Shown here one piece after another: positions 47,682 to 51,739 of a stretch of 64,000 bases of DNA. The DNA comes from Escherichia phage AV126. A program made the position numbers and the translations under genes. The number at the start of each line of letters is the position of its first letter. The stretch's first letter is position 1. The stretch lies in the sequence record OR352956.1. One strand, given 5' to 3'. Under the pieces are notes generated by a model, which had not been told where the DNA came from, made no database searches, and saw nothing but the letters and a program-made list of their open reading frames with translations.

Positions 47682-48087
47682 TACCCCTCCATTCAAGACA
47701 AGCCATAACTTTACGCCAATCACTTTCTGTAAGAAAAATCTCGTTTGCTTTCTTCCACAAATCTAGATCGTGAAGGGTTGGAATACGATATGTTAGTTCA
47801 CAGAATCTATGTTCTTCTTCTGTAATATAACCAAAATGCAAAGCCACATCGTGAAACCAACACCAACCATGCATCTCTCGAACAACATGATCATGTTGAG
47901 ACATTGTTTTATGACGTAAACCTAACCAACAAGGAACAGATACTTTAGTAGTCTTTAATCTGTGATCAACAGTATTAGAGTATTCAATAATAGCTATCAA
48001 TTTCAATCGTGCTTTTTCTAAATCCTCATGCGGCACTTTGAAATAACTTTCTGAAAGATATCCACACATATTAATAACCTCCTTCAA
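47674..48087 (-). CDS. hypothetical protein (137 aa)
   Basis: ORF overlapping neighbours. Confidence 0.5.
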   Translation of the reverse strand: MKEVINMCGYLSESYFKVPHEDLEKARLKLIAIIEYSNTVDHRLKTTKVSVPCWLGLRHKTMSQHDHVVREMHGWCWFHDVALHFGYITEEEHRFCELTYRIPTLHDLDLWKKANEIFLTESDWRKVMACLEWRGNE

Positions 48088-49012
48088 AAGGCTTAACTAC
48101 ATGTTGATTAGCTTTAAAACGTTCAACATAGTCGTTTTCACCCATGTTTTCATATAGCTTAGTAACAACATAAAAGTTCTCCCAAGCATATTCCCTAAAC
48201 CAACCACTAGTGATAGATGTGCAAACTTTAGATAAAGCCATCATAAAACTTTGCTTAGGGGTTGGACCTCCGATCTCTTCACCGAAAGGAATTTGTGAAC
48301 GTTCCAAAGCCAAAACACACGCTTCTTCATAAACACCTAACAGGCGCACATGTTTTGGTTGAGCAAAAAACTTTTCTTTGCTGGTCATAACTTCACTTCC
48401 ATCTTTCATATAAGATTTATATGCTGGAGCATCCATTACTGCGATTGCTTCATGAATAGAGTCATGATCATAAACATACGGAACCTCATCACCTTTAAAG
48501 AAGTCTTTACTTCTCACGTTTAAGTTTGGATGAGAGTAAGTATATGTTTCTTTCTCACGCAACTCATAAATACTCTTAAGATTTTCTGGGATCTTTGCGC
48601 CTAGTGATCGCATGAAATGAATATCTTTCATAGTTTTAAAGAAGTAAGGACTATCCTTTTTAAAACGATGACTCATTTTAAGAAGGTAGAGCACATCTAA
48701 AGGAGCAACAACGTGTCCAGCGTAAGTTCGACGAATATCATCACAGTCTTCACAATAACTAATCAAAGCTTCTGTGCTATTTCCTTGAGAAGCAATATCG
48801 TATTCCAAATGTGCACCCGCTATCATTTTGACATGGCCCTTGTTCCCTTTACGCTCTACAAGTTCAACAAACTCATCTTGAGAGAACATTTTTGATAATT
48901 CTTCCCACTCTTGTTCTGTACAGAGATAATCTAAATCTACACAAGGGCGATACAAGTCTTTTCCCATGTCCATAGCATGAATTTGTAATGCACGGCTACC
49001 AATTAACACCAT
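48071..49012 (-). CDS. hypothetical protein (313 aa)
   Basis: ORF with upstream promoter (TTGACA-17-TAAACT) at 49043-49071; weak nucleotidyltransferase-like GS...DLD pattern. Confidence 0.5.
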   Translation of the reverse strand: MVLIGSRALQIHAMDMGKDLYRPCVDLDYLCTEQEWEELSKMFSQDEFVELVERKGNKGHVKMIAGAHLEYDIASQGNSTEALISYCEDCDDIRRTYAGHVVAPLDVLYLLKMSHRFKKDSPYFFKTMKDIHFMRSLGAKIPENLKSIYELREKETYTYSHPNLNVRSKDFFKGDEVPYVYDHDSIHEAIAVMDAPAYKSYMKDGSEVMTSKEKFFAQPKHVRLLGVYEEACVLALERSQIPFGEEIGGPTPKQSFMMALSKVCTSITSGWFREYAWENFYVVTKLYENMGENDYVERFKANQHVVKPFEGGY

Positions 49013-49042: not shown

Positions 49043-49071
49043 AGTTTATCAAGCTTCCAGATTTCTGTCAA
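49043..49071 (-). promoter_or_regulatory. sigma70-like promoter (minus strand)
   Basis: Minus sense TTGACA - 17 nt - TAAACT, directly after terminator 49072-49095 and upstream of ORF 48071..49012. Confidence 0.55.
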
Positions 49072-49095
49072 TAAAAAACCCGCCGAAGCGGGTTA
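49072..49095 (-). terminator. rho-independent terminator (minus strand)
   Basis: Minus sense AACCCGCTTCGGCGGGTT + TTTTTT immediately after stop of ORF 49103..49375. Confidence 0.85.
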
Positions 49096-49102
49096 TTATT
49101 TA

Positions 49103-49375
49103 CTAACACATTGAGGAAGAAGAGATCCAAACACCTCTTGTGGTTAAACCATTTTCATCCAACTCTACACCATAATCTTCACAAATGAAATCAATATAGT
49201 GATCTGCGGCTGGCGTTCCTGTAGGGTAATAAGTTTCTCCGTTGCCGTAGTCACCTATCCAAGCTTGTTCCTGAAACTGTTCACAAAGTTCTTCGATTTC
49301 CTTACGAAACTTTCTTTGTGCTTGTTCCATCTCTTTAACTTTCTTTTTTATCAGCAGTTCGCCTTCAGACTCCAC
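49103..49375 (-). CDS. small acidic protein, W-x-SSS-C family copy 1 (90 aa)
   Basis: C-terminal ...GVWISSSSMC; followed by strong terminator. Confidence 0.5.
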   Translation of the reverse strand: MESEGELLIKKKVKEMEQAQRKFRKEIEELCEQFQEQAWIGDYGNGETYYPTGTPAADHYIDFICEDYGVELDENGLTTRGVWISSSSMC

Positions 49376-49384
49376 AATCTCTCC

Positions 49385-49603
49385 TTAACAGCTACTACTG
49401 TGCCAAACGCCTTGAGAATTAACGACGAAACCATCATCACCTTCACCATAACAAGAAGAGGATTGCCAATCTTCAAAACAGATTGCGTTATCTTCTAAAC
49501 TAAGACCAAAACCAGCATCTTCAGCTTCTTTTGTAAGTTCGTCCACTAAAGCCATAATAGCTTGGGCTTTTTCAGTTAATTCTTCAACATTACGATCACT
49601 CAT
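49385..49603 (-). CDS. small acidic protein, W-x-SSS-C family copy 2 (about 72 aa)
   Basis: ATG 49603 after GGAGG; internal EDWQSSSC and C-terminal GVWHSSSC. Confidence 0.5.
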   Translation of the reverse strand: MSDRNVEELTEKAQAIMALVDELTKEAEDAGFGLSLEDNAICFEDWQSSSCYGEGDDGFVVNSQGVWHSSSC

Positions 49604-49917
49604 TAGTATTTCTCCTCCGGTTGGAAAACTGAACGACAAGCCCACATACTAGCTTCTTTTAAATGTTTAATAGCACAACGGATTTGATCAATACGCTCGT
49701 ATGCAACATCTAATTCTTTTTCTGTGCCGTCAAAAGACCCATGATATGCTTCACAATACTCTTCCTCTAAAGCTTTGAAGATTAAACCTAAACGCTCTTC
49801 TGCATCTTTAATAGCGTTAACCTTGCCAATCTTATCGTCGGTATGCGCCTTATAACCTTTGATATCTTCGATTCCCACTTTACCTCCTATTAACAACTTA
49901 AAGAAGATGGATGCCAA
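49603..49917 (-). CDS. hypothetical protein (104 aa)
   Basis: ORF; TAATG overlap with downstream. Confidence 0.5.
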   Translation of the reverse strand: MASIFFKLLIGGKVGIEDIKGYKAHTDDKIGKVNAIKDAEERLGLIFKALEEEYCEAYHGSFDGTEKELDVAYERIDQIRCAIKHLKEASMWACRSVFQPEEKY

Positions 49918-50087
49918 TTTGTCCCAGTATTCTCATTTTCATCTTCTGGATCATAATAACCACCCATCCCATATTCAGGGGAGAAATGGAAACCTTCTCC
50001 AGTCTCGTCTGCTAACTGCTCTGCTTCCGCTAAAGCATCATAAGCTGCTTTTACGGCTTCTTCTACTGTTTTAAACTTGGTCGTCAT
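49890..50087 (-). CDS. small acidic protein, W-x-SS-C family copy 3 (65 aa)
   Basis: C-terminal ...TNWHPSSLSC. Confidence 0.45.
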   Translation of the reverse strand: MTTKFKTVEEAVKAAYDALAEAEQLADETGEGFHFSPEYGMGGYYDPEDENENTGTNWHPSSLSC

Positions 50088-50361
50088 AAAATTTCTCCTC
50101 TCCTAAAGACATGGTGACATGAAATGCACGATATGTAAATTCGTTGTCCGTTGTATTTGAATAAAACTCAAATTGAACAACACCGTCTTGAGAAGACAAA
50201 TACATGCCAATTTGAACTGTACCTTCTGGTACTAGGTAAGCATACTCTGGGCGTAGTGTTACATTGTAAAAATAAAGTTCACCAACACCCATTTCATCCC
50301 AAGCTTCCCAAGCGGTAACGAAGTTACTTTCAAAACTTGTTACTGATCCGAACTCTGCCAT
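50071..50361 (-). CDS. hypothetical protein (96 aa)
   Basis: ORF in co-oriented block. Confidence 0.5.
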   Translation of the reverse strand: MAEFGSVTSFESNFVTAWEAWDEMGVGELYFYNVTLRPEYAYLVPEGTVQIGMYLSSQDGVVQFEFYSNTTDNEFTYRAFHVTMSLGEEKFYDDQV

Positions 50362-50852
50362 AAAACCTCCTCAATTTTGTAGTTTGACTCCATCTCCAAC
50401 ACATTTCCACGAACGTCTCTCCGAAGAAAGGCATAAGCTTTATTAGGTATTGTAGACTCATATTTAACCATATCTGGCACAGCAAAAGATACTACTACTC
50501 CTTCTGGGCTTCTGTCAAGAGCCTTATTAATATTTCTAAGGATATCGTTAGCCAAGATTTCTGCCAATTCTCCAAGAACAGTTTCGGTTATATCTTTATA
50601 CCCCATTAAATATTTGTTAATATCTTTCATCTCTGCATTGTTCAGAGTATAGTCTAAAGGATAGAAATTCAAAGCGGAGTCACTTTTATGTGTCCACATG
50701 AAATGTACCCGATCCGAGCAGAATCGTAACCCTCTACGAAGAATGTCTTCTACAACAGGGAGAATTTCTTTTGTCACATCATTAACCATGTTGTAATCTA
50801 AGATTTCTGCCAAGTTTGTTCTTTGTTCACCACGTTTACGTTTAGGAATCAC
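50340..50852 (-). CDS. hypothetical protein (170 aa)
   Basis: ORF in co-oriented block. Confidence 0.5.
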   Translation of the reverse strand: MIPKRKRGEQRTNLAEILDYNMVNDVTKEILPVVEDILRRGLRFCSDRVHFMWTHKSDSALNFYPLDYTLNNAEMKDINKYLMGYKDITETVLGELAEILANDILRNINKALDRSPEGVVVSFAVPDMVKYESTIPNKAYAFLRRDVRGNVLEMESNYKIEEVLWQSSDQ

Positions 50853-51423
50853 TTGTTATTGCCCTCATTACCAAAGGTCGTAGAAAATCATAAATCTCTT
50901 GTTTTGTTTTCCCACGAATGTTTAAACAAGGAACATTATTTGCTTTAGCTATCTTCCAAGCCGTAGCTGTTCCGCCTTTTGCATCTCCGTGTTTATCAGT
51001 ATCGGCACAAGCCAACAAGAAACATGATGGAGCAGGATTCTCCAAATCTTTACCTAACACCTGATGCACATTACGTTGGTGCAATTTTCTAGCGCCCTGC
51101 TTAAGCTTTTCATAAGCTGGGTGAACATCTTTGATCCATTGCACAGAGATAGCATAGTTCATTGTATCTGGTTTTGCAAGAACAATAACATCACCTGGAA
51201 TCTGATTACCTTTGAAATTTTCCCAAGGTACATAAATCTCCTTGTTAGTAGGATTTTCAGACTCTTGGACACCTGTTTCAAAAGCAGAATCACTACCCTC
51301 TGCCTTCCCAGACCTTAATTTAAACCCAAGGTTTGAAAGCCATTTCCCTATGCCTACCATCAAAGCCCACTCTTCTTCAGATATGTCTCTACTTCCAACT
51401 CCCGTATAGAACAGTTCTGCCAT
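50842..51423 (-). CDS. SLOG/DprA-like Rossmann-fold protein (about 193 aa)
   Basis: ATG 51423 after GAGGTGAT; TGVGSRDIS...RSGKAEGSDSAFETG resembles GxGSR / SGGAxGxD motifs of DprA/LOG-like folds. Confidence 0.45.
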   Translation of the reverse strand: MAELFYTGVGSRDISEEEWALMVGIGKWLSNLGFKLRSGKAEGSDSAFETGVQESENPTNKEIYVPWENFKGNQIPGDVIVLAKPDTMNYAISVQWIKDVHPAYEKLKQGARKLHQRNVHQVLGKDLENPAPSCFLLACADTDKHGDAKGGTATAWKIAKANNVPCLNIRGKTKQEIYDFLRPLVMRAITSDS

Positions 51424-51430
51424 AATCACC

Positions 51431-51739
51431 TCAACAAGTAATTTCAAAAGGTGTATAGGGTTCCGTATTTCTCATGATCCAAGGACTGCTAGGATTGCTC
51501 GGATCATAAGGACCAAAAGGTTTTATGGTAGGTTGTGTCTCTTTCTTCTGAATCTCTTCAAAAATACGACGAAGTTCAGAATATTCTTGATCCACCATAA
51601 GATTCGGTGCATCTGATTCTACAGCTTGCAGGTTATCTTCCTTAAAAATAATCTCTCGAACAAGATTAACATCTTCTGTTTCTAAGATAACTTCTTTACG
51701 GATATTACCTACACTTTGAATAATTGTAATCTTATACAT
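51431..51739 (-). CDS. hypothetical protein (102 aa)
   Basis: ORF; ATGA-type coupling. Confidence 0.5.
   Translation of the reverse strand: MYKITIIQSVGNIRKEVILETEDVNLVREIIFKEDNLQAVESDAPNLMVDQEYSELRRIFEEIQKKETQPTIKPFGPYDPSNPSSPWIMRNTEPYTPFEITC

Follow-up and report, generated by a model that had tools for sequence, protein, structure and literature searches.

Within a 64,000-nucleotide stretch of Escherichia phage AV126 (sequence record OR352956.1; the window, hereafter, is this whole stretch), we analysed three small minus-strand open reading frames (ORFs), A, B and C, whose products end in a Trp-Ser-Ser-Cys tail, together with a predicted nucleotidyltransferase (NTase) gene downstream of them. 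A (49103-49375) has a GTG start and encodes 90 aa, with an N-terminal helix, a GDYGNGETYYP block and the tail GVWISSSSMC (tail codons 49106-49129). B (49385-49603; 72 aa) carries an N-terminal helix, an internal W-Q-S-S-S-C copy (49451-49468) with YGEG immediately after it, and the tail GVWHSSSC (49388-49405), while C (49890-50087; 65 aa) comprises a helix at residues 8-29, the block FHFSPEYGMGGYYDP and the tail TNWHPSSLSC (49893-49916). The YG-x-G block accordingly reads YGNG in A, YGEG in B and YGMG in C, and the tail takes an 8-residue form in A and C and a 6-residue form in B. All three sets of coordinates agreed with the coding sequence calls of the RefSeq phage nieznany (98.8% identical), and the region was ~97-98% identical to dozens more Phapecoctavirus (phAPEC8-like, Stephanstirmvirinae) genomes. 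The ORF ends, including the internal EDWQSSSC of B, were exactly those given in an earlier note on this DNA, and its description of the products as small and acidic was borne out by isoelectric points (pI) of 4.05-4.4. The note had also called the ORFs neighbours, which holds for their region and strand but not for strict adjacency, as a 91-aa ORF at 49603-49878 splits B from C.

Pairwise identity among the three proteins was 21-30%. All three aligned to the C-terminal part of the phrog_899 profile (E 1e-5 to 3e-13; 2.9e-12 for A, 9.5e-6 for B and 3.4e-13 for C); judged by these matches they are paralogues of one family, PHROG 899, with no assigned function, and not the otherwise divergent proteins that the note had taken them for. 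Searches of Pfam and NCBIfam with A, B and C returned no match. The motif Ser residues are encoded by TCN in A, in C and in the internal copy of B, and by AGT/AGC in the terminal copy of B. Because they are drawn from both codon families, the motif is under selection as a peptide rather than as an RNA element or for its composition, and an RNA-level element was rejected on this ground. A six-frame scan of the window with W.{0,2}SS.{0,3}C gave six matches, four inside A, B and C and two in stop-interrupted frame stretches at ~4.8-4.9 kb. A chance or low-complexity coincidence has the shortness of the motif in its favour and nothing else. Against it stand the PHROG matches, the restriction of the motif in uninterrupted frame to A, B and C within the window, and the position-specific tail of the 508 homologues described below. 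We regard this reading as refuted by the profile matches, the homologue search and the tail statistics, with a probability close to nil; the codon evidence likewise speaks against low-complexity composition, which the note had named as a ground for refutation.

To define the wider family, we searched 1.84 billion representative sequences exhaustively with HMMER and a 15-sequence profile (E ≤ 1e-3). The search matched 508 cluster representatives, and the match reached the last residue in almost all of them. The sequences examined further numbered 172, that is, the best 150 of the 508 representatives, minus two long spurious matches, plus earlier homologues. A terminal Cys was present in 166/172. 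Among these Cys-ending members, 157 have W at -8 and 158 have S, P or A at -6, and Ser occupies -5 in 159 and -4 in 165. YG.G was found in 162/172 members, usually in the form AYGMGGTYYP, and 34/172 had an extra internal W-x-[SAP]-S unit; median length was 86 aa and median pI 4.4. The consensus N-terminal half is a variable amphipathic helix followed by F-x-F-x(3-4)-YG-x-GG-x-Y-x-P, and the C-terminal half is an acidic linker of variable length followed by G-W-x-[S/P/A]-S-S-x-x-C-COOH; the short tail form W-x-S-S-x-C was seen in paralogue B. In longer members, the added length is coiled coil only. We rejected zinc binding or disulfide formation inside a single monomer as the role, since more than half of the members (91/172) have no Cys besides the terminal one.

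The motif is kept in distant phage groups, the point on which the earlier note had made its reading depend. Homologues of 105-118 aa from T4-like phages (Edwardsiella PEi20, Enterobacter Entb_45), retrieved by a word-indexed search, end in GVWISSSEMC or similar, and tblastn placed one small-protein subfamily in 447 deposited phage genomes. The family is phage-restricted, and the database names of its members are all 'hypothetical protein'. Its profile returned coiled-coil noise only (E ≥ 0.16) against all Protein Data Bank (PDB) chain sequences. Structure prediction, a check proposed in the note, gave a divided answer for paralogue C: AlphaFold2 with the 15-sequence alignment modelled the helix at residues 8-29 confidently but left residues 39-65, the tail among them, below 50 in predicted local distance difference test (pLDDT) score. 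Because of these low scores, the tail of the isolated protein is probably flexible; the acidic linker is probably disordered.

The NTase gene (48071-49012, minus strand) lies 91 nt downstream of paralogue A on the same strand. Its 313-aa product belongs to PHROG 2141 and pVOG 2418, contains the Pfam domains DUF7277 and DUF7275, and is predicted to have a Pol-beta fold; the corresponding clusters of the small proteins are PHROG 899 and pVOG 2412 and 2415, none with an assigned function. The enzyme model (pLDDT 89) found its best structural match in the MenT1 toxin (score 11.6; Foldseek E 5e-4), followed by TglT/MenT3 (10.1), ANT(2'')-Ia (9.8), Megavirus poly(A) polymerase (9.6), MenT4 (8.9) and LnuA (8.9). 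Across 30 homologues, G5-S6, D26-x-D28, E70, K112 and D130 were invariant. By order and spacing, K112 and D130 would correspond to K137 and D152, which are listed as MenT1 residues (PMC10435456). Because the NTase fold and the catalytic residues are intact, the predicted enzyme is very probably active. Many more invariant residues lie in the DUF7275 helical domain (HD 183-184, EE 229-230, CTSITSGWFR 264-273), which suggests a candidate site for binding a specific acceptor.

The enzyme was found by tblastn in 734 deposited phage genomes. Its profile gave noise only against PDB sequences, none of 120 enzyme homologues was fused to a tail, and our literature search found no description of DUF7275/DUF7277 or of phage DUF1814-like NTases. 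In the BFVD database, DUF7275 proteins were also seen in giant eukaryotic viruses (A0A3G5AJ90 of Sylvanvirus, Foldseek E 4e-16; A0A3G5AE53 of Satyrvirus, 1e-11), and the enzyme fold shows a weaker likeness to the poly(A) polymerase catalytic subunits of nucleocytoplasmic large DNA viruses. ARAGORN detected no tRNA genes in the window, where this MenT-like enzyme does not stand beside phage tRNAs.

Genes of the two families were found together in distant phages, whichever family the sampling started from. On the enzyme side, the 313-aa protein served to fetch 23 IMG/VR loci, at 43-77% identity and on contigs of 11-357 kb. W..SS..C ORFs were present in 23/23, with 1-5 per locus, directly upstream and on the same strand save in three loci taken up below. 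Collapsing the loci at 85% enzyme identity, with six distant GenBank phages included, gave 28 groups. Linked by BLAST, 46 tail-motif ORFs formed one cluster, which occurred in 23 of the groups and lay upstream of the enzyme gene in 46/46 cases, and two further groups carried variant tails outside that cluster (..SWMSSSANC, ..GWDSSSC). Pairing was present in 25 of the 26 non-redundant full-length enzyme groups, and no other neighbour family was found in more than seven of the 28. Bacterial hits among 185,579 species were confined to four contigs of metagenome-assembled genomes, with small genes just upstream in 4/4. On the family side, two degenerate DNA patterns, YGMGG..W.SSS..C-stop and the tail alone, were run over IMG/VR; they recovered 9 and 23 genuine members of the family, respectively. 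An NTase gene stood downstream on the same strand in 9/9 for the first pattern and in 16/16 evaluable cases for the second (those with sufficient downstream sequence to judge). The same held for all five divergent members looked up singly, arrays of 4 and 9 paralogues included. The pairing spans Phapecoctavirus, several T4-like genera, Otagovirus, ~350-kb jumbo contigs and unclassified metagenomic phages, and the other neighbours change. These results indicate that the small family is a dedicated partner of the DUF7277/DUF7275 NTase, in a near-obligate and ordered pairing. Our literature search found no paper on the tail motif, YGMGG or the PHROG ids, and none that mentions the pairing; the databases list the two families solely as domains or clusters without an assigned function.

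The number of small genes per single enzyme gene varied from one to nine, in tandem. Phage APCEc01 (RB69-like, Mosigvirus) has three tandem paralogues, ending in GAWVSSSALC, GGWVASSHTC and QGWVSSSYSC, with a 318-aa homologue of the window NTase downstream. The largest array seen consists of nine paralogues ahead of one DUF7275 gene (locus L100, 2588-4970), and its tails are progressively degenerate (GWLASSNSC, GWQNSSRNC, GWNSSNC twice, GWLSSTHSCS, GWMSSTNSCR, WWMPSRFC, FWDTSEVCW, HWDSSSEQC...).

Such precursor-like arrays beside one enzyme, with a near-invariant S at -4 (165/166) and terminal Cys (166/166) in the Cys-ending members, could also describe precursors resembling ribosomally synthesized and post-translationally modified peptides (RiPPs). 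Ser and the terminal Cys would then form a lanthionine or aminovinyl-cysteine (AviCys) ring, the helix would be the leader, and the NTase would possibly activate Ser for elimination. The spacing S-x-x-C-COOH equals that of the epidermin AviCys ring, which we take to be Ser19-Cys22. However, none of LanB/C/M/KC/L, LanD/HFCD, YcaO or radical-SAM is encoded by a conserved gene near the module, the annotation of the matching 50 kb of phage nieznany lists no such maturation enzyme, and the only lanthipeptide-model match, NF038148, reached 12.4 bits against a cut-off of 25 (E 0.11). A conserved 'core' with a variable 'leader' is moreover the reverse of the usual RiPP pattern, and the proteins are cytoplasmic and 65-200 aa long. 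We consider this explanation very improbable.

We consider it likely that the small proteins and the NTase are functionally coupled in some way. From the paralogy, the constraint on the tail, the ordered pairing, the NTase fold and the variable copy number, we infer that they act jointly and that the tail is recognized. Our preferred reading, held tentatively and with less than even confidence, is that the tail is a docking or acceptor element of the NTase, a pseudo-substrate variant included. The flexible tail would dock into the acceptor site of the enzyme, where the hydroxyl of an invariant Ser (-5 or -4) would take a nucleotidyl (or phospho-) group from a nucleoside triphosphate. The small proteins would thereby be protein substrates or carriers of the NTase, and their variable helices would direct the 1-9 paralogues to different downstream targets in early infection. 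The physical contact, its direction (substrate or regulator), its chemistry and its biological role are all proposals at this stage.

A substrate or carrier role is favoured because conservation falls on a flexible tail whose hydroxyl residues are invariant, because the W-x-S-S unit can repeat (in B and in the 34 members with an extra unit), and because many paralogues per enzyme are typical of substrates. It is also favoured because of Brevibacillus phage Sundance, whose acidic gp088 (L052 2675-2956), encoded upstream of a DUF7275 homologue, ends in EEEYSSSYYEEEEYSSSYYEED; this acidic tail has lost the terminal Cys yet keeps aromatic-SSS repeats, and gp088 may be the Gram-positive counterpart of the partner. 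Enzymatic precedent is a further reason: Pol-beta-fold NTases that nucleotidylate protein hydroxyls include GlnE, GlnD, DrrA and the MNT of HEPN-MNT. MenT1, in turn, is able to phosphorylate its own Thr39 (PMC11375011). In a narrower version, the tail would be the acceptor peptide of a virus-specific NTase, and the module a phage-encoded modification system that makes nucleotide-peptide conjugates on small carriers. Ser O-nucleotidylation would possibly be followed by chemistry at the terminal Cys, and the conjugates would serve early host takeover or counter-defence. We hold this narrower version to be possible but doubtful.

The earlier note had proposed that the tail is a shared signal for processing, modification or targeting, and this claim is partly supported. 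A conserved functional signal for recognition or modification, genetically tied to a predicted NTase, is best supported by context, namely the near-constant NTase neighbour and the W-x-S-S repeats within some proteins. Processing, modification and targeting are all putative, and the tail might just as well serve for binding or inhibition as be a site of modification.

Several observations weigh against the tail as a docking or acceptor element. In one enzyme group, the three enzyme-side loci L007-L009, an adjacent family gene is lacking, and the sole tail ORF is 6 kb off and on the opposite strand. A clade of short-form enzymes (~250 aa; KVP40, Streptomyces and Mycobacterium phages) occurs without the tail family. 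A subfamily of small genes (P0040/P0071) lies beside an RlaP NTase, on contigs too short for a DUF7275 gene. In the window itself, an intrinsic-terminator-like hairpin with a T-run (49077-49094, minus strand; immediately 3' of A) and a sigma-70-like promoter (49043-49071, minus strand; TTGACA-17-TAAACT, with TG; in front of the NTase gene) stand between A and the NTase gene, whereas in other loci the gap between small gene and NTase gene is only 6-50 nt. Because this predicted terminator and promoter separate the two genes, co-transcription would not be required, and the coupling is not necessarily transcriptional in the window. The targets of the nearest structural relatives are tRNA 3' ends (MenT) and small molecules (ANT, Lnu), not proteins, and the invariant terminal Cys has no role that Ser nucleotidylation explains. 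Both the interaction with the tail and its modification are putative and argued from context.

The short-form enzymes have a different conserved neighbour of ~100 aa, upstream or downstream, with the pattern ..YF.KTGYY.S...W.G.FVEV.P..KTI..Y and no Pfam match; examples are KVP40.0036 (L054 2543-2839), L053 3600-3938 and L057 3615-3950. Beside RlaP, two small genes of that subfamily (pattern ..[FW][YF]SSSM[SG]C), ending in ..FWYSSSMSC and ..GWFSSSMGC, overlap the stop codon of the RlaP-family (PF10127) NTase gene (L101 94-1352; L105 1-965). The two closest RlaP relatives show the gene order small genes, DUF7275 gene, intervening genes, RlaP gene, and in L106 and L107 a distance of ~0.9 kb separates the DUF7275 gene from the RlaP gene downstream of it. 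RlaP as a second obligate partner was rejected, since 26/28 RlaP relatives have no family gene, and we read the adjacency as regional.

The structural match of the enzyme model to MenT1 raises the main alternative, a regulatory one, in which the small proteins would inhibit, in an antitoxin-like or timing role, a potentially toxic NTase that tails RNA or tRNA. The helix would bind the enzyme and the acidic tail would plug its site or mimic the acceptor, with no modification of the small protein. MenT1 is the best structural match of the enzyme. The MenT1 partner, MenA1, is encoded upstream and has 68 aa, with a single long helix and a C-terminus that is disordered (PMC10435456). The phage family is likewise always upstream, small and acidic (pI ~4.4), which fits nucleic-acid mimicry. 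However, 1-9 paralogues per enzyme gene are unexpected for an antitoxin, and the tail, the most conserved part here, is dispensable in MenA1 (PMC10435456). MenA1 induces autophosphorylation of T39 (PMC11375011), and the position that appears equivalent in the phage enzyme is the invariant Asp D26. The family profile also found no match among PDB sequences, which should include the solved MenA1:MenT1 complex (PMC10435456), and the setting is a lytic phage with a separate promoter and terminator for the two genes in the window. Inhibition of this kind is conceivable, and we rate it as doubtful.

A remaining alternative comes from the gene neighbourhood. The ORF between B and C (49603-49878, minus strand; 91 aa) matched the Acb2/Tad1-hairpin family (PF24729, E 1.3e-16, 60.9 bits against a cut-off of 27), and its product, annotated as vs.4-like (T4 vs.4) in phage nieznany, is likely a cyclic-nucleotide sponge against CBASS (cyclic oligonucleotide-based antiphage signalling system); its presence beside the module is not conserved in other phages. 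A 96-aa ORF (50071-50361, minus strand; phrog_4991) overlaps the start of C and occurs upstream of the module in 5/28 enzyme groups. By window 50842-51447 (minus strand) and the annotation of nieznany around the module, the early-region neighbours include a DprA-like protein, a NinI-like Ser/Thr phosphatase and two DNA methyltransferases, and further ones are a Sir2-family protein, an HslV-like peptidase and PhoH. The surrounding region looks like an accessory or counter-defence neighbourhood. The small proteins might then be effectors that act early and independently of the NTase, through a tail that serves as a short linear motif for a host protein, in takeover or anti-defence, with synteny reflecting a shared early neighbourhood. 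The presence of the Acb2 homologue, the two methyltransferases, Sir2, the phosphatase and the DprA-like protein in this region is in keeping with such a role, as are the phage restriction of the family and its small, acidic, partly disordered products, which resemble many anti-defence proteins. However, the pairing persists across phage lineages in which all the other neighbours differ, gene order and strand do not vary (46/46 ORFs upstream), and the enzyme is downstream in 25/25 evaluable loci of the two DNA-pattern scans. Independent effectors are in our view unlikely.

Treating the small proteins and the NTase as one module provides a shared, testable hypothesis for hundreds of 'hypothetical' early genes. 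Among the phages concerned are E. coli phages in wide use, such as phAPEC8-like phages, RB69/JS98-like T-even relatives and the BASEL phage Bas47, with its gene bas47_0236. The 8-residue C-terminal tag, with its invariant W, S-S and C, is a simple experimental handle. The pairing suggests that viral MenT/ANT-like NTases act together with small protein partners dedicated to them.

Four known systems can be compared with this module. The phage MNT-like, cGAMP-forming NTases of Ho et al., which produce competitor cyclic dinucleotides, are alike in belonging to the Pol-beta superfamily, in being phage-encoded and in lying in anti-defence neighbourhoods. Their signature is GS-x-AY[GAN]T-x4-SDxD, with 9 residues between GS and SDxD (bioRxiv 10.1101/2022.06.09.495361). 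The window enzyme departs from it: the N-terminus, MVLIGSRALQIHAMDMGKDLYRPCVDLDYL, lacks GS-x-AY[GAN]T-x4-SDxD, there are 18 residues from GS to VDLD (GSRALQIHAMDMGKDLYRPCVDLD), and a DUF7275 domain is added. The AviCys/lanthionine precursors, such as epidermin, share with the small proteins a Ser-rich segment, an S-x-x-C-COOH end, tandem precursor-like genes and a helical N-terminus, whereas the phage module is without RiPP maturation enzymes, its conserved and variable parts are inverted, and its proteins are much longer. The MNT of the HEPN-MNT type VII toxin-antitoxin system, GlnE, GlnD and DrrA pair an enzyme of the NTase fold with a protein substrate, either genetically linked or dedicated to it, that bears a hydroxyl acceptor, as proposed here. 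Their acceptors are Tyr residues in folded proteins, whereas the candidate here is Ser in a disordered C-terminal tail, and the phage module has no HEPN or PII/GS-like partner. If the tail is indeed nucleotidylated, it would represent a new kind of phage-encoded protein modification.

By architecture, the closest known system is the MenA1-MenT1 toxin-antitoxin pair of M. tuberculosis (Rv0078B/Rv0078A), which has no sequence similarity to the phage pair. MenT enzymes carry a phospho-acceptor [S/T]xD (T39 in MenT1, S78 in MenT3), in contrast to the canonical D26-x-D28 that is invariant in 30 homologues here, D26 being the position that would correspond to the phospho-acceptor by motif order. The phage enzyme also has an additional helical domain, DUF7275, which is large and highly conserved, and its small partner differs from MenA1 in an invariant, functional-looking tail and in occurring in 1-9 copies. 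MenA1-MenT1 resides on a bacterial chromosome, whereas the phage pair is found in lytic phages; if the tail is an inhibitor, the logic of MenA1-MenT1 would extend from bacterial toxin-antitoxin systems to lytic phages.

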